Origin: Omnitrophica bacterium GWA2_41_15
GTDB taxonomy: Bacteria > Omnitrophota > Gorgyraeia > Gygaellales > UBA12090
NCBI GenBank assembly: GCA_919902675.1
Contig: CAKKRH010000014.1
Location: 21,393 to 85,392 of the forward strand
Length of the DNA stretch: 64,000 bases
Direction: 5' to 3'
The notes below the pieces were generated by a model that was given only the letters and a program-made list of their open reading frames with translations, did not search any database and was not told the DNA's origin. Shown piece by piece: positions 4,003 to 46,660 of this stretch (position 1 is the first letter of the stretch; the number at the start of each line of letters is the position of its first letter). Both the position numbers and the translations under genes were made by a program.

Positions 4003-4021
4003 CTTCTCTTATCTCCTTTAA

Positions 4022-4199
4022 CCCGGAATTTGCAATAGGATTTCGGCAAAATGTCTCTAAATCCTTGCCAATACTGCGTTATGCTCGCAAAAGTGTCCTC
4101 GGCGTATCGCACCGGATACGCCTGCGGTACTTTTGCTCGCATGCCTTGTCTTGTCAAGGATTTAGGCCATTTTTCTCGAAACCTATCGCAAAATCCGGG
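4022..4199. mobile_element. MITE family B, copy 1 (178 bp)
   Basis: Terminal inverted repeats cccggaatttgcaatagg / cctatcgcaaaatccggg, nested internal palindromes, and a direct 5-bp duplication TTTAA at 4017-4021 and 4200-4204. No ORF. Confidence 0.75.
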
Positions 4200-10752: not shown

Positions 10753-10794
10753 GATTGCGGCCTCCGAAAGCCTCTATTATCCTGGAGCTTACCA

Positions 10795-10815
10795 TTCCTA
10801 TCGCAAAATCCAGGA
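10795..10815. repeat. possible solo terminal-repeat remnant of MITE family B
   Basis: attcctatcgcaaaatccagga closely resembles the right end of copy 1 (acctatcgcaaaatccgggt). No matching left end lies nearby. Confidence 0.3.
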
Positions 10816-10836
10816 TTATGCGGAATTATAAACCGG

Positions 10837-14356: not shown

Positions 14357-14461
14357 TAGAGCAATAGAAAATAGACCGCAATTGAGCTTTTATTTTTTTC
14401 TATTGCTCAATTTTCTATTGCTCAATTGCTCTACCAATTTTTGGCAAAGCCAAAAATTGGT
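14349..14461. repeat. Repeat family D, copy 1 (gaacaataga.../...ctattgctcaattgctc) plus a terminal hairpin
   Basis: Shares gaacaatagaRcaat...gaccgcaattgagc...ctattgctcaattgctct with 48190-48344 and 51828-51969. It ends in the hairpin ccaatttttgg-caaag-ccaaaaattgg, which overlaps the tRNA CCA end. Confidence 0.7.
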
Positions 14462-14531
14462 TGCCCGGTGAGGGCTCGAACCTCAACGCCGAGATCCAAA
14501 TTCTCGTGTGCTACCATTACACTACCGGGCA
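14458..14531 (-). tRNA. tRNA-Gln (anticodon TTG), CCA encoded
   Basis: Minus-strand cloverleaf: acceptor TGCCCGG/CCGGGCA, anticodon stem CGAGA/TCTCG with loop ATTTGGA, T arm TGAGG-TTCGAGC-CCTCA, discriminator A and CCA. Total 74 nt. Confidence 0.85.
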
Positions 14532-20377: not shown

Positions 20378-21865
20378 ATGTTAAAAATATTGCGTCAAAA
20401 AAAGCGGGCTCAGAAAATAATCCTCTCAGGAATGGTCGTGGTAATGGTCTTCGCCTTTGTGCTTTGGGGAGCCGGGGCCTGGAAGCAGAGTTCTAAAGAA
20501 TCCAACTATTCCGGAGTGATCTTTGGCCGCCGGGTTTCTAACCCGGAATTTAGAAAAATACGGCTTTCCTGCCTGAATGACCTCAAGTTCAGGTTCGGAG
20601 AAAATTATAATGTCCTCCTGCAGTTTGTTGACCTGAATAACCAGGCCTGGATAAAACTGATTCTGCTGGAGTATGCCAAAAAACAAAAAATTACCGCCTC
20701 CAACCAGGAGGTAATTGATGAAATTGCCTCTAATCCTTTGTTTTCCAAAGACGGTAAATTCAATCAGGATACCTACGGCAGAATAATCCGCTATTTTCTG
20801 GGCAGCCAGCCCCGCGAATTCGAGGAGCAAACCCGCAATAACCTTATTATCCGCAAACTCTATGTCCAGGCCACCAAGGATGCCGCCCTGACCGACACGG
20901 AAGTCTTGGAGGCTTACAAAAAAGACAATGAGACCTTAAGCGTCCATTATATCCAAACTGACTCTAAAAACTTTCTTTCTGATATAAAAACAAGCGAAGA
21001 CGAGCTTAAAGACTATTATCAGAAAAACTCAAGTCAGTTCAAACGCCCTCCCACGGTAAAAATCGAATATATAGGAATAGACTACCCCCCGGACTCCAAA
21101 GAAGCCCAGATGATAGGCGTATCCGAGCAGATGAACAATATCCATTCTAAAATCAAGAAATCAAGCGAGTTAAAAAGCCTTGCCGGGGATAATGTTATCC
21201 ATAAGGAAAGCGGCTTCTTTGCCTCAGATGAGCCCTTAGAGGGCATTGAGTCTGAAGAATTCTATAAGTATGCTTTTAGCCTGGGCGCCGGTCAAGTCAG
21301 CCCGGTAATCAAAACCTTAAAAGGCGTATATATCCTTAAGGTGATCCGAAAGAAGGACCCTTATATCCCGGAATTAACCGAGACAAGGCCTAAGGCAGAG
21401 GAGGCGCTGAAATTAATCAAGGCTAAAGAAGAAGCCAGGAAGAAAGCCGAAGATTACAGAAATAAGATTGACGGTTATCTCAAGAACGATCAGGCGATAA
21501 ATTTAAAAAAGGCCGCTGAGCTTTTAGGAGTAGAATTAAAAACCACTCCCGCTTTTAAACGCGGCCAGGCAATTCCGGACGCGGACATAGACCTAAGTGT
21601 CTTAAATTCCGCCTTTGAGCTTAAGCCGGGTGAAATAAGCCCGATTTTAGAAGGCGCGAAAAGTATTTTTATTGTCGAGCCGGATAAATTCACCGGAATT
21701 GACCAGGAAAAATTCAAGCAAGATAAAGCGGCCTTCTCCGAAAATCTTTTGGAAAAGAAAAAACAGGATGCCTTTAACTCCCTCCAGAGCCAGCTCATTG
21801 GCCAGGCCAATCTCAAGCAATACATCTCCTCATCATCCGCCTTTCCAGATATAGCTGACCAATAA
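20378..21865 (+). CDS. PpiD/SurA-family periplasmic chaperone, parvulin-type peptidyl-prolyl isomerase
   Basis: 495 aa with an N-terminal anchor (KIILSGMVVVMVFAFVLWG), a SurA-N-like region and a parvulin-like segment (VSPVIKTLKGVYILKV). It is the only plus-strand gene in the window. Confidence 0.7.
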   Translation: MLKILRQKKRAQKIILSGMVVVMVFAFVLWGAGAWKQSSKESNYSGVIFGRRVSNPEFRKIRLSCLNDLKFRFGENYNVLLQFVDLNNQAWIKLILLEYAKKQKITASNQEVIDEIASNPLFSKDGKFNQDTYGRIIRYFLGSQPREFEEQTRNNLIIRKLYVQATKDAALTDTEVLEAYKKDNETLSVHYIQTDSKNFLSDIKTSEDELKDYYQKNSSQFKRPPTVKIEYIGIDYPPDSKEAQMIGVSEQMNNIHSKIKKSSELKSLAGDNVIHKESGFFASDEPLEGIESEEFYKYAFSLGAGQVSPVIKTLKGVYILKVIRKKDPYIPELTETRPKAEEALKLIKAKEEARKKAEDYRNKIDGYLKNDQAINLKKAAELLGVELKTTPAFKRGQAIPDADIDLSVLNSAFELKPGEISPILEGAKSIFIVEPDKFTGIDQEKFKQDKAAFSENLLEKKKQDAFNSLQSQLIGQANLKQYISSSSAFPDIADQ

Positions 21866-21867
21866 AA

Positions 21868-21898
21868 ATGGCGGCCCGGTTTTGCCGGAGGCCGCCAT
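21868..21898 (+). terminator. stem-loop after the ppiD-like gene
   Basis: atggcggcc-cggttttgccgga-ggccgccat begins immediately after the stop codon. The U-tract is weak. Confidence 0.4.
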
Positions 21899-21901
21899 TA
21901 T

Positions 21902-22059
21902 CCCGGATTTTGCAATAGGAATGCGGCACCGAGACGCCAAAGAAGGATGCAGATTTGGCAGAAAAAAGTGCGCGCATACTTTTAGTATGTAAGCGCTTTT
22001 TTCTGACGAAGATGCGCCCTTATTTGGCGGCGAATGCCATTACTATTGCAAATTCCGGG
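21902..22059. mobile_element. MITE family B, copy 2 (158 bp)
   Basis: TIRs cccggattttgcaatagg / ctattgcaaattccggg, with a direct 5-bp duplication ATTAT at 21897-21901 and 22060-22064. The interior forms a long imperfect hairpin. Confidence 0.75.
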
Positions 22060-22106
22060 ATTATATACTTTTTATGTATGTCTAACGCTTGAATTCAGGG
22101 TTTAAT

Positions 22107-22322
22107 TTATGCTGATACCGGGGTCAGACTAAATACACGCGCGATCTTCGTTGCCCTCTGCAGGGAGCCTTCTCGCAAAGCTTCCCTTACCTCATCTATC
22201 TTTTGGGCATCTTCAAGAGAAAGATACGGCGACCAGCCATCTCCGGTATCAAGAATCTCCACATCAATTTCCGCGACATATTTGCCCTCGTGCACGAGTT
22301 TTGTATGCTGCCTCTTTGTCAT
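22107..22322 (-). CDS. 71-aa hypothetical protein
   Basis: The ATG at 22322 is preceded by a GGAGG RBS (MTKRQHTKLVHEGKYVAEIDVEILDTGDGWSPYLSLEDAQKIDEVREAL...). I recognise no domain. Confidence 0.5.
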   Translation of the reverse strand: MTKRQHTKLVHEGKYVAEIDVEILDTGDGWSPYLSLEDAQKIDEVREALREGSLQRATKIARVFSLTPVSA

Positions 22323-22371
22323 ATTCGCCTCCTGGTAAAATTGTCTGTCCACATATTTACATCCGGCCTAT

Positions 22372-22442
22372 AAAAAAAGGGGTCAGAGTCATTTTTGAAT
22401 TGTTGTTGTCTCACAAGCAAAAATGACTCTGACCCCTTTTTT
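22372..22442. terminator. ~25-bp perfect inverted repeat flanked by A- and T-tracts (bidirectional terminator-like)
   Basis: aaaaaaaggggtcagagtcatttttg ...loop... caaaaatgactctgacccctttttt. It lies between the 776-aa gene and the 71-aa ORF. Confidence 0.6.
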
Positions 22443-22522
22443 GAATGTTCTGCTCACAACTAAATTATATCACCACAGAGATAAAATATCTATAGATAAG
22501 ATTAAGAAATCTGGAAATCCGC

Positions 22523-24853
22523 TTAACTCATGCCCGCCTTTTGGCTATTAGGCAAGAGGACGAATTTAGCGGTGTCCACAATCACCAGCGACTCTCTAAG
22601 TTCCGGGCTAGTTTCCAGATTCTCTTCCTCTGCCAAGCGGTAGATCTCAGCCAGACAGACTAACAAATCATCCTGTTTTTCCTCAATCTTACCCTTCTGG
22701 AAGCAGGCGGCCAGATATTCCTTAACCCTCTCTCCCGAAGGCACCATCCCGGCCTTGACCATATCGCGCAAGGCCTCTAACTCCTCATCCAAGTCAAGCC
22801 TCTCCAGCGCGCTGATAGTTAAGGTAGGCAGGCCAAAGCGCAAATCCTTAAAGCTCCCCATCGGCTGGACCAGATAATTCATAGCTCGAAAATCAATACC
22901 GCCGACATTTTTAAGAGCAGGTTTAGAAATTGTCTCCATTGAGGAAGAAGCCATAATCTCTGCTATCTTTTTATCAACCATTTCCTGCAGGCTCTCATTT
23001 CCTTTAGGATTCTGAATAACGTAGCCTATAATTTCTCCTACCTCTTGTATGGCAGGGTTACGGTCAATCTTTTCCCGGAATCTTTCCACAATAGATTTTA
23101 CATATTTCTCACTCGCAGCACCCGTTTGCCCTACGATTCTCTTTACTACAGCCTCCGCATCAATTTCTAGCTTTTCCCAATCTTCCTGAAGCTGTTTTAA
23201 CTCGGAAATGCTACCCCTTAATGTTAATAATCTTGGTCCTGATCGCACCGCGTATCCTTCCGGCAGAATATTTACCAATAATTCCTTACCATAAAAGCCT
23301 CTTCTCTCAGAAAGCATCTCTACAATTTCCTTTATTTCTTCCCCCTTTTCTATTTTTATTCTTGTGCCGTCTCGGTAAAAAGTCTTTAAATAAGATAACA
23401 TTCTACCAATATCTTGAAAGCCGCTTTCCGCAATTTCAATCTCCCCCCTGTTCTTTTGCTCGCTTAATTTCTCAATATTAAGCATTTTTTCAATATCCTT
23501 CACTATAACCCACAATCTTCTTTCAAGCTTTCGCATTTCTTCTATCTGCTTAAGAGAAAGAGAATCCATATCTTTCCGCCTTGCCTCCATCGGCGAAGAG
23601 CCTTTTTCTCCATTAGCCGTACCTGGCTCAAGCACAATTATTTTAACTCCTATATTGTTTCCGTATGTTGTAAAATAAAGTTTTTCAGTCTGTTCGTTTG
23701 GTTTAAGTTTATAACCTTGGACACTAACAACATCAAGGTGTCCTTTATCTTTACTAACATCATGGTATGTATTCTCGGTCATCACTGGACTGCTTATGGC
23801 CATCCCCCCGCTGACATAGCTCCTGATTGCCTGACCAGTAGGGGTGACTACCTGCTCTTTAAGGTTATATTCGCCTTGTTCAAAGGATTTCTTGTATTCA
23901 TTAAAGTAGTAGGTTTTATCCCAGGCCTCTTTAGAAGTAAGGTTAGTGAGATTATGGGAATCTATGAGTTTAACATAGGAGTTGCTATTCTGTGGACTAT
24001 GGACTGTGGACTGTGGACTGAATGTTTCTTTGAACCAGCGGGCCATTACCAGAGAAAAAAAGACCTGGCGAAGGGCGGCGTAGCGCTTGGAGATGTTTAC
24101 CTTTTTGGTCAGCTTAGGGATAATCAGCTCCCGGATAAGCCGGGTGGAGTATTCGTTGAGCTCCTTCATCCTGGGATCTTTGAAATTATATTGCTGAGAG
24201 TTGATAGCTGACGGCTGAGAGCTTAAGTAATCATGTTCTAACATCACCTTCATATTGGCCTTAAAGATATAGGCCGAGTCTTCTCCTTGCCTTAAGATTA
24301 TCTCTCCCGGGACTATCCAAGGCCGGGTGATGGTGGGAATGGTGATGTTTTCACTGCCGAATAGCTCTCCGGCCTTCTTATAAAGCTTGTCCCAGTATTG
24401 CTTACCTTCCGGGGTCTGGGGCGAGGTCAGGCCGGCGGTGTCCTTCTTTAACTGCAGGTCGGCCTCAAGCATAACCTTACCCATATCGGTTTTCTCAAGC
24501 TCCGGGTCTATCATCTGGTCCGGGGCGTCCGGCCTTAGGTTGACCCAGAACTTCTCATTAGGCAGGGCCAGGCCAATCTGGAAATACTCCATCAGCACCT
24601 TGGTCTTTTCCTCTAATTCAGCTTCTTTAATATCCTTATTGTCTCCCTTATCTAAGAGTAACTGAAAATCATCCTTCTCTATATCGTATGAGAAATAGCG
24701 CATATGTAAGGGGCGGAACCTGTCCGCTGCCAGGCTGCTGCCTACGGTATGCAGGTAGGTTCCTATGTTAAGCTGGGCTACTCCCTGGGCAAAGATGGGC
24801 TGACCTGTAATCAGGGTCCAAGACAAAAGAATAGAGATTATCTTCTTTAGCAT
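22523..24853 (-). CDS. 776-aa secreted protein of unknown function
   Basis: Signal peptide MLKKIISILLSWTLITGQPIFAQG and a GGAGG RBS. The middle is Lys/Glu-rich and coiled-coil-like, and the C-terminal region contains VGGIDFRAMNYLVQP. I cannot name a domain. Confidence 0.7.
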   Translation of the reverse strand: MLKKIISILLSWTLITGQPIFAQGVAQLNIGTYLHTVGSSLAADRFRPLHMRYFSYDIEKDDFQLLLDKGDNKDIKEAELEEKTKVLMEYFQIGLALPNEKFWVNLRPDAPDQMIDPELEKTDMGKVMLEADLQLKKDTAGLTSPQTPEGKQYWDKLYKKAGELFGSENITIPTITRPWIVPGEIILRQGEDSAYIFKANMKVMLEHDYLSSQPSAINSQQYNFKDPRMKELNEYSTRLIRELIIPKLTKKVNISKRYAALRQVFFSLVMARWFKETFSPQSTVHSPQNSNSYVKLIDSHNLTNLTSKEAWDKTYYFNEYKKSFEQGEYNLKEQVVTPTGQAIRSYVSGGMAISSPVMTENTYHDVSKDKGHLDVVSVQGYKLKPNEQTEKLYFTTYGNNIGVKIIVLEPGTANGEKGSSPMEARRKDMDSLSLKQIEEMRKLERRLWVIVKDIEKMLNIEKLSEQKNRGEIEIAESGFQDIGRMLSYLKTFYRDGTRIKIEKGEEIKEIVEMLSERRGFYGKELLVNILPEGYAVRSGPRLLTLRGSISELKQLQEDWEKLEIDAEAVVKRIVGQTGAASEKYVKSIVERFREKIDRNPAIQEVGEIIGYVIQNPKGNESLQEMVDKKIAEIMASSSMETISKPALKNVGGIDFRAMNYLVQPMGSFKDLRFGLPTLTISALERLDLDEELEALRDMVKAGMVPSGERVKEYLAACFQKGKIEEKQDDLLVCLAEIYRLAEEENLETSPELRESLVIVDTAKFVLLPNSQKAGMS
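23993..24020. repeat. heptanucleotide tandem repeat (tggactR x4) inside the 776-aa CDS
   Basis: Read directly as tggacta tggactg tggactg tggactg. The unit length is not a multiple of 3. Confidence 0.8.
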
Positions 24854-25025
24854 TTTAGCTACCTCCGGAAGGATTTTTGGGGTGGATTTTTGGGTTATTT
24901 TGTAGTGTATTCATATTGTAGCTAAAATATACCACAAGAAAAGACAAAAACAAGGTCCAGGCCGTGTTTTTGAGAAAGCGCTTTCTTGGGGAGGAGTTAT
25001 CGTCGGAGAAGTAAAAAGCGGGGTG

Positions 25026-25066
25026 AAAAAATAAATAAAAAGGCGGCCCGCGTGTTACAGGCCGCC
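25026..25066 (-). terminator. rho-independent terminator after the ferredoxin gene
   Basis: Minus-strand read: GGCGGCC-tgtaacacgcg-GGCCGCC followed by TTTTTATTTATTTTTT. Confidence 0.7.
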
Positions 25067-25094: not shown

Positions 25095-25277
25095 TTATTC
25101 TACCTTAATACAGCTTACCGGACAACTCTCGGCTACCTCTTTGAGGTTGTGGTTGGCCGCGCAGTTAGAACCCAGCACATGGGCCAGGCCGTCGCCCTGG
25201 ACCCGAAAGACCTCCGGACAGCCCTGTTCACATAAACCGCACCCCACACAAGTTGAAGCATCAACACTTACCTTCAT
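25095..25277 (-). CDS. fdx: small monocluster ferredoxin
   Basis: 60 aa with CVGCGLCEQGCP ... CP. It lies directly downstream of the por operon and is the likely electron acceptor. Confidence 0.85.
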   Translation of the reverse strand: MKVSVDASTCVGCGLCEQGCPEVFRVQGDGLAHVLGSNCAANHNLKEVAESCPVSCIKVE

Positions 25278-25302: not shown

Positions 25303-27342
25303 TTAGACTTTTGGTTGAGCCTGGACAGCTTGAGGCGGCTGCGGAACGATTTGCTCCGCTTTCAGGCCGTATCTCTCAATATTTTTATCCGCCACTGCCT
25401 GTATCTGCTTAACTAACTCAGGCGAATTGATAATATGTTTGAACCTTCCCTGACACTTTAAATATTCCTCAACCGGCTTAATCTTGGCTAATTTACGCGC
25501 ATTGGTCAATTTTCCGTTTTCATATTCTATTAAAGGGTAAAGCCCTGTTTCCACCGCGAGCTTGGCAATATCATAAGTAAGTTGAGACTCATGCCTCCAG
25601 CCCAGAGGACAGGGAACGTGAATCTGGAGATATTTCGGGCCCTTAATGGATATAGCCTTTTTAACCTTATTCTCTATATCTCTAAGGTAACCCACCGAAG
25701 CCGTAGCCACATAAGCCAAGCCGTGGGCCACGGCAATTTCCGGCATCGGCTTCTTGGGCCGGGGATTGCCGGCGGATTGACTGCCTATGGGTGTAGTAGA
25801 GGTAGAGGTTTCAAAAGGAGTCAGCCCGCTGCGCTGAACGCCGGTATTATGCACCACAATGCCGTCAGCGATAAAATTATGCTCATCCTCCACCCTCAAA
25901 TCCAGGGTCGGCTCGATACCTTTAGACTCTACACTGATAATTTCTTCGGTCTGAAAAAATTCATTCTCCATCAAGAAATCCCGATACCGGGATTGCGAAG
26001 GATATTTCTTTATGTCCGGCTGGATTTTGCGGCTAAAACAGATATAGCCATATTCTGAATCTACCAGTAAGTTCCTGTTTACGCATTTAGTGCCTTTTTT
26101 CTTGGTTTGGGTATGAATTTTTCCTACCCGGTAATTGAGCGTCTGAAGCAATAAGCGCATCCGTTTCAAGAGCTCAAAACTTGCCGAGACATATCTTTTG
26201 CTCCCTTTATGGTCATAACCGTCAGCCAGCATCAAGCCTTCAACAAACGCTTCTTTCTCTTCTTTAGGAAGGGTGAATATCCAGCCGGGTATAGTTTTAT
26301 TCTTCGCTCCCTGTCCCAACCCCAATGTATCTATAAATTTAGTTAAGTTAACCGAGTAAATTGAAAGATAGTTCTCATCCTGGGACACCGGACTAGAAAA
26401 TATTTCTTTATGCAGGCCAACCAGAACCTCTCTGGCTTTTTTGCCTTTGGGCAGAGCAAACCCTATTTCATCCCGGCCTTCCCTTCTCCAGCCGTCGCCG
26501 ACAAATATCCCCAGGTACTTCATCAGCTCCGGGGTGGATTCCCGGGGCAAATTTACTTCATTGAGCTTATTAACCTTATAATCGCCTTTTTTTACCTTAT
26601 TTATCTGGCTGAATTTAAACGACCGGCAGGCGCCGTTCATCCCTTTCAAAGATACTACCTGGTCACCGATTTTGACATTCTCAAGCGTCTTCCAAACAAA
26701 AGAATTCGACCGCCCTCTGCCGTTTCTTTTTAAGATCAGAAAAGGGTGATTCGCGGTTGCCTTTATGGAATGGTGGCGGGTTTGCAGTTCAAATACCTCT
26801 TTTTTGCCGTTATCAAAGACACCACTGCATTTCTTAATTACTAAGTGCCGGGTATTTTGGTCAAAGGCATAAACCCCGTCGCCAACCTTTATCTCGGTTA
26901 TTTTCTTAAGCCCATCCCCGGTTAAAATCAATGACGAGAGGCTTAAACAATTCATATAGGCCTCATTGTCATAGCAGATTGACAGGATATCGTGGCCTCT
27001 TTCCCACATCCCAGATAACGCCTGTAATCCGATATCCGCGGTTCCCCCGTCCCCGGCCTGGCAAATGACATTTATTTTATCCTTGACTCCCAGATGCTTT
27101 AAGGCCGCCTCAATGCCGGAGGCAACTGCCGCGGCATTCTCAAATAAGGAATGGATCCAGGGAACTCCCCAGGATGATTCCGGATATTTGGTGGAGAAAA
27201 CCTCAAGACAGCCGGTATTATTGGCAATCATAGTGTTTTTTCCGGCAATATCTATGACTAACCTGGCGGCAACTGCCTGGCCGCATCCGGCGCAAGCGGT
27301 ATGCCCGGCGCAAAAAAGGTGTTCTGAAGCTGGGGCGCTCAT
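25303..27342 (-). CDS. porB: pyruvate:ferredoxin oxidoreductase beta subunit (ThDP-binding), interrupted by an intein
   Basis: The exteins (131 aa + 180 aa) carry CAGCG..., GDGG...YDNEAYMN|TG and the C-terminal PorB region. A 368-aa insert lies between them. Confidence 0.9.
25846..26949 (-). mobile_element. intein with a LAGLIDADG homing-endonuclease domain (368 aa)
   Basis: Begins with Cys ([13 protein letters not shown]) and has block B ATANHPF and LAGLIDADG-like motifs LGIFVGDGW and [11 protein letters not shown]. It ends in IVVHN followed by Thr+1. Confidence 0.85.
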
Positions 27343-45046: not shown

Positions 45047-45064
45047 TATTATCTTAGTATTTAA

Positions 45065-45156
45065 CCCGGATTTTGCAATAGGTATGTAAGCGCTTTTTTC
45101 TGACGAAGATGCGCCCTTCTTTGGCGGCGAATGCCATTACTATTGCAAATTCCGGG
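45065..45156. mobile_element. MITE family B, copy 3 (92 bp, an internal-deletion derivative of copy 2)
   Basis: Same TIRs as copy 2, with a direct duplication TTTAA at 45060-45064 and 45157-45161. The right duplication contains the leuA stop codon. Confidence 0.75.
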
Positions 45157-45157
45157 T

Positions 45158-46660
45158 TTAACCGGCTATCTTATTAACCGCCTGCAGGTATGCCTTGATA
45201 GAAGCCTCGATAATATCAGTGGAGCTGGCTCGCCCCATGGCCTCTTTTGTCTTACTTCTTAACTTCAGGCTTACCTCACCCAGGGCGTCTTCGCCCCGGC
45301 TCACCGACTGAATACCGTAATCCAAAAGCTGGCACTTGAGGCGGGTGATTTTTTCTATTGCTTTATAGCAGGCATCCACCGGCCCGTCTCCTCCGGAGTC
45401 CGCCTCAAAAATCTTACCCGAACTCTTTAAGATTATTTTTGCCTGAGGCACAGAATTGCTCTTAGAATTTATCTCAAAGGCCTCTAACTTCCAGACCTCA
45501 AGCGCGTTAGACCCAATTTCTTCCTGAACAATAGTAACCAAATCCTCATCAAAGACCTGCTTTTTCTTATCCGCCAATATTTTAAATCTCTTAAAGGCCT
45601 CATCTATGTCTTTTTCGTCCAGTTTGTATCCTAAGGTTTTAAGCCGGGCCAAAAAGGCGTGCCTTCCGGAGTGTTTGCCCAGGACCAAACCCTCTACTTT
45701 AAAACCCACATCCTCAGCCTTAATAATCTCATAGGTAGAGCGCTTCTTTAAAACCCCGTCTTGATGTATGCCGGACTCATGCCTGAAGGCATTCAAACCC
45801 ACAATGGCCTTATTCGGGGCAACCACAAAGCCGGTTAATTTGCTGACTAAGCGCGAGGTCCTATAAATCTCTTTGGTTTTAATAGAAGTAGTAACCCCGA
45901 AATAATCTTGGCGCACCTTAAGGGCCATCACTAATTCTTCCATTGAGGCGTTTCCGGCCCGCTCTCCTATACCGTTGATGGTGCATTCTACCTGGCGGGC
46001 GCCATTCTTAACCGCGGCCAAGGAATTGGCCACCGCCAGGCCCAGGTCATTATGGCCGTGCACCGAAATAACCGCTTGATTAATATTAGGGACATTTTCT
46101 CTTAAGGCCCGGATAAGCCCTCCATAACCATACGGCTCGGCATAACCCACGGTATCCGGAATATTCACGGTCCGAGCCCCGGCCTTAATCACCGCCGCGA
46201 CCACCCGGTATAAAAATGCCTCCTCCGTCCTGGAGGCGTCCTCGGGAGAAAACTCAATGTCATCACAGAGATTCCTGGCGTATTTTATTGAGCTTACTGC
46301 CAGGCGCAGGATTTCATCCTCAGCTTTTTTTAATTTATAACGCATATGGATTTTAGAAGTGGCCAGAAACACATGGATGCGGGATTGCCTGGCCTTTTTA
46401 GTAGCCTGATAAGCGATGTCTATATCCTTGGGGATAGCCCTGGCCAAGGCGCATATTCTGGAGCCCTTTATATTCCGGGCCACCATCTCCACCGCCTCAA
46501 AATCACCGGGGCTAGAAACCGGAAAACCGGCCTCAATAACATCCACCCCCAGCTTCTCCAAGCTAAAGGCGATTTCCAGCTTTTCCTTCTGGTTTAAAGA
46601 GGCCCCCGGCGCCTGCTCTCCGTCGCGCAGGGTAGTATCAAAGATAATTATCCTATCCAT
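45158..46660 (-). CDS. leuA: 2-isopropylmalate synthase (or citramalate synthase)
   Basis: 500 aa with [12 protein letters not shown], an HMGL-like barrel and a LeuA dimerisation/regulatory C-terminal domain. Confidence 0.85.

Follow-up and report, generated by a model that had tools for sequence, protein, structure and literature searches.

The giant proteins of Omnitrophota known as Archaeovorins combine signal peptides with domains of the cytoplasmic type, a contradiction apparent from the papers that describe them (10.1101/2023.11.21.568195; 10.64898/2026.06.07.730766). Omnitrophota are ultra-small, uncultured and probably host-dependent, and signal-peptide giants full of 'cytoplasmic' enzymes are a puzzle of this phylum. 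Here we describe a gene for a 776-amino-acid (aa) protein (22523 to 24853, minus strand) in a 64,000-nucleotide stretch of Omnitrophica bacterium GWA2_41_15 (assembly GCA_919902675.1, contig CAKKRH010000014.1, positions 21,393 to 85,392; hereafter the window, numbered from its first letter). Its product belongs to a large family in which a conserved N-terminal domain (N-domain) and a conserved C-terminal domain (C-domain) enclose a variable middle, the cargo. This family poses the giant-protein puzzle in tractable short genes that have a fixed frame and usually one or few payloads.

The likeness to Archaeovorins lies in origin and repertoire. Both groups belong to the same phylum and carry N-terminal signal peptides, and in both HEAT, TPR, PPDK, NUDIX, HAD, methyltransferase and glycolytic domains, as divergent versions of housekeeping domains, are predicted to be extracytoplasmic. 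The pairing of a signal peptide with a cytoplasm-type repertoire was found here at the level of the family, and a PpiD-like gene with a Rotamase_2 domain recurs nearby in both cases. In contrast, Archaeovorins exceed 30,000 aa and contain many membrane helices, whereas the 776-aa protein is far shorter and shows no hydrophobic segment beyond its signal peptide; members of the family usually lack a membrane helix and hold one or few payload domains. Archaeovorins also bear SecA-like, C39 or S8 peptidase domains, none of which Pfam finds in the 776-aa protein or in 54 scanned members, while the fixed N- and C-domains are not described in the Archaeovorin papers.

Polymorphic toxins (Rhs, CdiA, LXG and MafB) are a second point of comparison, since they too form large paralogous families with a conserved trafficking part, and payload swapping by recombination would be a further parallel. 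In those systems the toxin payload occupies the extreme C-terminus, whereas here the C-terminus is conserved and the payload, made up of metabolic enzymes or repeat domains, is internal. The adjacent immunity gene of polymorphic toxins likewise has no conserved counterpart at 78 family loci, and the gene downstream in the window is an unrelated antitoxin remnant.

Proteins with a type IX secretion system (T9SS) C-terminal domain (CTD), autotransporters and dockerin-bearing cellulosome enzymes share with the family a Sec signal, a variable region and a common conserved terminal domain. Their terminal domain is a beta-sandwich, a beta-barrel or a Ca-binding dockerin, whereas the C-domain here is modelled as a helical bundle, and the N-terminus adds another conserved domain of far greater size. 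Models of known sorting domains in NCBIfam and Pfam gave no match to the 776-aa protein. Collectively, the family works most like polymorphic effectors or sorting-domain cargo and has its payload repertoire in common with Archaeovorins, but it lacks the features that define each of these systems.

Conserved end domains around a variable middle

We cut the 776-aa protein into an N part (aa 1-360), a middle (aa 361-640) and a C part (aa 641-776) and compared each with the 120 best database matches. The N part was common to all 120 and the C part to 114, whereas the middle was common to 3, namely the 776-aa protein itself and the two products of a close relative (P0002 and P0003, 51-53% identity). 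The payload of the 776-aa protein is a lineage-specific, charged, helical segment. A homologue search with the middle segment on its own was uninformative, returning nothing and missing even the 776-aa protein itself. An NCBI entry annotated as 'hypothetical protein' of a Candidatus Omnitrophota bacterium (AABZ65_04840) is 100% identical to the product.

Alignment of the N-domain revealed about 50 invariant residues, including FWVNLRPD. The domain starts at residue ~1 in all members, and the 776-aa protein carries its motifs FWVNLRPD, LEADLQLKKD and RPWIVPGE directly after the signal peptide and ends it with the invariant Y-x-S-G-G. The C-domain begins with an invariant glycine (G651), followed by G652, I653, D654 and F655, each at least 90% conserved. 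Found once per protein in 182 of 218 members, it ends no more than 37 residues from the C-terminus (median 5), and most members without it look like truncated metagenome fragments; in the 776-aa protein this helical GGIDF domain likewise lies at the extreme C-terminus. An earlier, sequence-only reading of the same DNA had picked out the open reading frame (ORF), its signal peptide and strong ribosome-binding site (RBS), and the strings FWVNLRPDAPDQMIDPELEKTDMGKVMLEADLQLKKDTAGLTSP and VGGIDFRAM...LVQP. All of these were recovered, the two strings proving to be signatures of the conserved parts, and its impression that the protein holds no nameable domain agrees with Pfam and NCBIfam.

Structure prediction with AlphaFold2 (AF2) assigned predicted local distance difference test (pLDDT) values mostly above 90 to the N-domain (aa 45-350) and the C-domain (aa 650-770, 88-97), and low confidence to the middle, with a predicted template modelling score (pTM) of 0.63 for the whole protein. 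A natural minimal member of 537 aa reached a pTM of 0.73. The C-domain was modelled as five helices (pLDDT >88), and the N-domain is predicted to adopt an alpha/beta fold without a known relative in PDB or BFVD. Foldseek comparison of the full model and of the 537-aa member with PDB, and with BFVD as well, returned no match at E <= 1e-3, and a PDB sequence profile search with the 776-aa protein gave coiled-coil noise in the variable middle only.

The cargo is flanked by a junction motif of the form [S/A/G]-S-P-hydrophobic (variant S-S-A-hydrophobic), which we counted 392 times against 23.8 +/- 5.0 in shuffled sequence, a 16-fold excess. Its usual place is up to ~45 residues beyond SGG and ~10-25 residues ahead of GGIDF; the 776-aa protein has SSP[VM] motifs at aa 354 and 419 (approximately nt 23783-23794 and 23588-23599). 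That the motif might be a processing or glycosylation site is a guess. Double-glycine processing of the C39 type at SGG or GGIDF, an idea prompted by the C39 domains of the giant proteins, fits poorly with Sec export.

The family extends far beyond the window. A HMMER scan of 1.84 billion cluster representatives (50% identity) yielded 7,360 matches at E <= 1e-3 and 5,001 at E <= 1e-30. The best 150 matches were 410-3,963 aa long; members seen with a C-domain spanned 537-3,963 aa, and the shorter matches listed lacked that domain and may be truncated. Scanning one genome per species with two exact motifs gave 468 confirmed loci, the best 80 of which lie in Omnitrophota metagenome-assembled genomes (MAGs), although the deposited name of a few is just 'bacterium' or 'uncultured Planctomycetales'. 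Paralogues are numerous: one MAG has 15 or more copies and another 9 or more, whereas 2.9 million viral contigs contained 2 matches. Two IMG/VR loci classed as viral (L208 and L209) have the N-domain at the contig end and are probably host DNA or misclassified.

Pfam and NCBIfam scans of the 776-aa protein, and of the 71-aa protein encoded downstream of it, gave sub-threshold noise only, and the precomputed Pfam annotation of the family matches leaves the end domains blank. Neither the end domains nor their motifs were described anywhere in the literature searched. The family is very large, confined to Omnitrophota and unnamed in the libraries searched, and its ends constitute two large, well-defined domain families with thousands of sequences that databases leave without a name.

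Cargo repertoire and exchange

Cargo identified by Pfam includes PGK (E = 4.8e-92, full profile), GAPDH and glutamate dehydrogenase, along with a cupin-type glucose-6-phosphate isomerase (GPI), NUDIX, guanylate kinase and MraZ. Further cargo comprises PPDK, GH94 phosphorylase, phosphoglucomutase, adenylate kinase, HD, HAD, RIO kinase, PrmA and FHA, to which precomputed annotation adds HEAT, TPR, DnaJ, CheR and acyl-carrier domains. Over its full length, the PGK cargo aligns with PGK of T. maritima (1VPE), and it retains the motifs RVDFNV, SHxGRP, ENTRF, GGxKVSxK, WNG, GGGD and STGGGA, while the GAPDH cargo retains NGFGRIG, SCTTN and TVHAYT. To judge by such motifs, the cargo enzymes look catalytically competent.

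The similarity of the middles does not follow that of the end domains. Between paralogues, N-domains are 56-99% identical (median 67%) and C-domains have a median identity of 37%, the two being correlated (Spearman 0.46). Of 203 pairs whose N-domains are at least 85% identical, the middle was common over at least half its length in 27. P0009 and P0010, for example, share 94% identity over the N-domain and 96% over the C-domain, yet have unrelated middles of 357 and 538 aa, and P0002 and P0003 match P0005 at 90% (N) and 95-96% (C) with middles that show no similarity. Within one sub-family the linker that follows the N-domain is common, yet it leads into NUDIX, TPR, GPI or unrecognised cargo.

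Some cargo begins, right after the N-domain, with a Sec-like or twin-arginine (SQTRREFLK) signal of its own, which suggests that whole, exported ORFs may have been captured between the end domains. Near-identical ends around unrelated middles, combined with these captured signals, indicate that cargo has been replaced in the manner of cassettes between end domains that stay fixed. The route of exchange would be recombination in the conserved DNA that encodes the ends, and the family would offer a natural example of whole-ORF capture between such ends. A textbook twin-arginine motif (SQTRREFLKMIGIGAVATAV) stands at the cargo start of P0213; other cases are P0060, P0021, P0031 and P0097.

Possible destinations of the payloads

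The N-terminus of the 776-aa protein, MLKKIISILLSWTLITGQPIFA/QG (the slash marking the likely cleavage site), looks like a Sec signal peptide, and a simple heuristic found such an N-terminus in 199 of 209 members. The family consensus consists of a basic n-region, a hydrophobic core of ~12 residues and Q-Q-x-G-F-A/Q, in which F-A-Q shows little or no variation. The share of cysteine is 0.05% in N-domains and 0.22% in cargo, compared with 1.17% in the window's long ORFs, a depletion of about five-fold for cargo; 37% of cargo segments (median length 699 aa) contain none. The GAPDH cargo has two cysteines, both of the active site. In this family, cytoplasmic enzymes have lost cysteines yet keep their active sites.

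With moderate confidence, we read these features as those of a Sec-exported family whose end domains form a common sorting, attachment or assembly module, taking swappable payloads to one extracytoplasmic place. Under this mechanism the protein would be exported through Sec with a cleavable signal peptide, its parts following in the order signal peptide, N-domain (~330 aa), junction, replaceable cargo, second junction and C-domain (~125 aa). The N- and C-domain would act jointly as one module and bring varied payloads to a common site, which may be the periplasm, the cell surface or a contact zone with host or prey. New payloads would enter as whole ORFs captured between the end domains and would then be exchanged by recombination within the conserved end-coding sequences.

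It is also possible, though tentative, that the family represents a phylum-wide and new kind of payload-placing system, in which a two-part frame, both of its domains with folds lacking known relatives, captures whole ORFs, among them catalytically competent glycolytic enzymes and nucleotide kinases, and sends them through Sec to a common extracytoplasmic place. If true, dozens of interchangeable modules would make up a metabolic workspace located in the periplasm, at the cell surface or where the cell meets its prey, and the family would stand as a short counterpart to the giant Archaeovorins, with a single payload per protein.

Several observations weigh against extracytoplasmic sorting. Many payloads (kinases, GAPDH, methyltransferases, DnaJ) need ATP, NAD or S-adenosylmethionine (SAM), which are not expected outside the cytoplasm. 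The C-domain contains 1.95% cysteine, and its two semi-conserved cysteines occur together in 73 of 172 members against 65 by chance, a coupling too weak to support a C-domain disulfide. Across the 78 family loci, whose neighbours are assorted housekeeping genes, no conserved neighbour gene (transporter, chaperone or receptor) emerged. The heuristic behind the signal-peptide calls is not a trained predictor, the statement that the N-domain has no structural relative covers PDB and BFVD only, and the pTM values of the two models are suggestive, and weakly so, of contact between the N- and C-domain.

The cofactor problem would disappear if the end domains were a translocation module comparable to the B part of AB toxins, carrying the payload into the cytoplasm of a prey or host cell where ATP, NAD and SAM are available. 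Such injection would suit payloads that are almost all cytoplasm-type enzymes or protein-interaction repeats with their catalytic motifs kept, that lie behind a signal peptide and that are depleted in cysteine. Paralogue expansion and cargo swapping also resemble effector and polymorphic-toxin families, and Omnitrophota have been proposed to be host-dependent or predatory (PMC10066038; 10.1101/2023.11.21.568195). We nevertheless regard injection as unlikely, given a cargo census without toxin-type payloads (nucleases, deaminases, ADP-ribosyltransferases), 78 loci without adjacent immunity or conserved secretion genes, and glycolytic enzymes that would be odd cargo for a predator. The top Foldseek matches, NheA, MakA and MakB, are pore formers of the ClyA type, but we treated them as noise (E >= 0.27, TM score ~0.1).

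Still less credible to us is a cytoplasmic scaffold, in which the N-terminal hydrophobic segment would remain as an uncleaved anchor, or fail as an export signal in some other way, leaving cargo and C-domain in the cytoplasm, where the end domains would cluster metabolic enzymes at the inner membrane. The dependence of payloads on ATP, NAD or SAM and the cytoplasm-like cysteine content of the C-domain would both be explained, and the authors of the giant-protein study themselves doubt an extracellular placing of the glycolytic domains in Omnitrophota giants (10.1101/2023.11.21.568195). Against this stand the conserved n-region, 12-residue core and G-F-A/Q site, typical of a cleaved Sec signal, the positively charged N-terminus, which would place the protein body outside, and the five-fold cysteine depletion of the cargo. 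A membrane-helix-like segment right after the N-domain does occur, but in 12 of 172 members, and we rejected it as a general feature: most members, the 776-aa protein included, have no second hydrophobic segment, and the extra segments resemble Sec or Tat signals that captured ORFs have left behind, one of them with a twin-arginine motif.

We consider it very unlikely that these proteins assemble themselves into a lattice on the surface or into a shell, an S-layer-like coat or the wall of a compartment built jointly by the N- and C-domains of many paralogues and displaying or enclosing the variable middles. The strong conservation of the N-domain, with its median identity of 67% between paralogues and some 50 invariant residues, is what many fixed contacts would require; the domain is cysteine-free and rich in tyrosine and lysine, and genomes hold many co-expressed paralogues. 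Yet no similarity to an S-layer, encapsulin or microcompartment fold was found (the best match, Caulobacter RsaA, has E = 1.8), and no anchoring motif was recognised.

The locus and its smaller parts

The 776-aa gene lies between a PpiD-like gene (20378-21865, plus strand) and ferredoxin and por genes starting at 25095, in agreement with its earlier placement between the lone plus-strand gene and the por operon (Table 1). The hairpin on the ferredoxin side sets it apart from the por/fdx transcription unit. On the other side, the perfect inverted repeat noted in the sequence-only reading was confirmed with arms at 22373-22397 and 22418-22442; the minus-strand RNA has a folding energy of -41.9 kcal/mol (z = -7.3), which none of 200 shuffles equalled. 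This 25-bp hairpin is the intrinsic terminator of the 776-aa gene. With a hairpin on the ferredoxin side and the 25-bp hairpin with its U-run on the other, the gene is therefore a single-gene transcription unit between two terminators. We rejected the 25-bp hairpin as a repeat element, since the window and the fetched loci contain no second copy. A sigma-70-like promoter match (22464-22492, minus strand; TAGATA-17-TATAAT with an upstream TG, 10/12) falls between the stop codon of the 776-aa gene and the hairpin; the count of such matches in the region does not exceed that in shuffled sequence.

Table 1. Features of the 776-aa gene and its surroundings, in window positions
Feature	Position	Strand	Remarks
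776-aa gene	22523..24853	minus	stop codon included; family member with conserved ends and variable middle
Sec-type signal peptide, aa 1-22	24788..24853	minus	MLKK, hydrophobic core, IFA/QG; read from sequence
Conserved N-domain, aa 23-350	23804..24787	minus	ends with invariant Y346-x-S348-G349-G350
Hypervariable middle (cargo), aa 351-650	22904..23803	minus	charged, mostly helical; GC 0.385
Conserved C-domain, aa 651-776	22526..22903	minus	first residues GGIDF; helical, acidic
RBS of 776-aa gene	24862..24866	minus	GGAGG, 8 nt 5' of ATG; read from sequence
Terminator-like hairpin 3' of ferredoxin gene	25042..25066	minus	10-bp stem with 8 GC pairs, followed by T-run
Intrinsic terminator of 776-aa gene	22373..22442	minus	perfect 25-bp stem, 20-nt loop, U-run
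71-aa putative antitoxin gene	22107..22322	minus	toxin partner lost
DUF4258 toxin gene remnant	22319..22372	minus	last 17 codons and stop; stop overlaps antitoxin ATG (ATGA)
MITE-like element, 160 bp	21901-22060		nested palindrome; TTA duplications at 21898-21900 and 22061-22063
Second, shorter MITE copy, 94 bp	45061..45160		45064-45157 plus TTA duplications; between two ORFs

At least five other genomes likewise have a family member in the por-fdx/ppiD-hisG neighbourhood. In a close relative (locus L001; JAUSCZ010000007.1, 6705-17287) the por operon, ferredoxin, ppiD and hisG are kept and the member is duplicated (789 and 771 aa), the copies being ~70% identical overall to the 776-aa protein (N 82-86%, middle 51-53%, C 88%) and interleaved with HepT/MNT, MazE, PIN and DUF2283 genes. 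In more distant genomes the member is kept in this neighbourhood with other cargo, which is PGK at L072, L077 and L080. Because the member is kept at the slot in relatives while the small genes differ, the slot has the big gene as a lasting occupant, and turnover is limited to the small genes.

The sequence-only reading had regarded the region as an accessory-looking islet. Variability applies to its small-gene content, not to the big gene; the locus is syntenic, while neither the 776-aa nor the 71-aa protein belongs to a well-characterised family. It is scarcely tenable that the whole was acquired horizontally as an accessory islet with orphan genes: differing small genes between the por operon and ppiD, the element described below and a cargo segment with the lowest GC content of the window (0.385, against 0.474 in the N-domain, 0.506 in the C-domain and 0.458 in the window) speak for it, but the big gene is core-like, with a family numbering thousands, the GC content of its end domains is normal, and the 71-aa gene has a wealth of homologues. 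As an islet the region is unremarkable; the 776-aa gene gives access to a large, undescribed and experimentally tractable family.

The por-ppiD slot seems to collect toxin-antitoxin modules. At L003 (MHGN01000057.1, 844-3792), from another close relative, the member in the same slot is broken after 389 codons, with tblastn matches running on to residue 766; a frameshift has made it a pseudogene, or else the break stems from faulty assembly. The PpiD-like gene itself, with SurA_N and Rotamase_2 domains, stands beside members in at least five other genomes and could represent a chaperone link; a Rotamase_2 isomerase is also reported to be a conserved neighbour of secretion loci near Omnitrophota giant genes (10.1101/2023.11.21.568195).

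The 71-aa ORF had first appeared to be an orphan, but its homologues of 69-71 aa number more than 2000 and come from Omnitrophota, Deltaproteobacteria, Actinobacteria and unclassified bacteria; their identity to it is 69-99%, apart from one listed at 50%. Elsewhere its homologue lies directly 3' of a 107-aa DUF4258 (PF14076) gene with a 4-bp ATGA stop/start overlap. The 71-aa gene is ~82% identical to the partner genes in these modules, and the overlap is kept in the window; in the modules elsewhere the toxin gene is intact, whereas in the window only its 17 C-terminal codons remain. The toxin frame in the window reads YRPDVNMWTDNFTRRRI up to its stop codon, where the intact 107-aa protein ends in YRPDSTMWTDNFTRRRI, and the likeness to the DUF4258 gene breaks off exactly at base 22372/22373, the start of the hairpin. 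The 71-aa protein matches no Pfam family and is not DUF2283 by hidden Markov model. The gene is the survivor of a decayed two-gene DUF4258 module of the toxin-antitoxin type, gene order pointing to a putative antitoxin role.

The element beside it, already taken for a miniature inverted-repeat transposable element (MITE) from the letters alone, is a real small mobile element. It is short and non-coding, with inverted ends of ~25-27 nt (21897-21923 and 22038-22064), an internal 46-nt palindrome, target-site duplications and copies at several unrelated sites. Its 24-mer end sequence matches the window 5 times against 0 expected, and copies at 95-98% identity, flanked by TAA, occur in 4 unrelated metagenome contigs that have only the element in common with the window. 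The underlying 18-mer metagenome scan gave 120 matches, most of them likely chance or unrelated, the whole element being present in those 4 contigs. Target-site duplications of TTA or TAA were seen in 6 of 7 copies.

IS5/Harbinger-type transposases generate 3-bp TWA target duplications. MITEs mobilised by them resemble the window element in its 160-bp, non-coding make-up, ~25-nt inverted ends, TTA/TAA duplications and many copies, whereas here the interior itself is a long palindrome and a 94-bp deletion variant exists. No parent transposase gene turned up, although no search was aimed at the parent insertion sequence. Isolated end-remnants of the same element at 4015-4048 and 10793-10823 point to old insertions or deletions.

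Elsewhere in the window, the porB-like subunit that binds thiamine pyrophosphate (679 aa; 25303-27342, minus strand) is interrupted at ~aa 132-500 by an intein that includes a homing-endonuclease domain of the LAGLIDADG type (Intein_splicing E = 2.5e-13; LAGLIDADG_3 E = 2.8e-5). The intein is also present in the close relative L001, whereas the gene of the more distant L080 is uninterrupted (275 aa). The only Rfam match of the window is a tRNA at 14461-14531 (minus strand). The minus strand carries most genes of the window, and almost all 1-kb bins have a negative GC skew.

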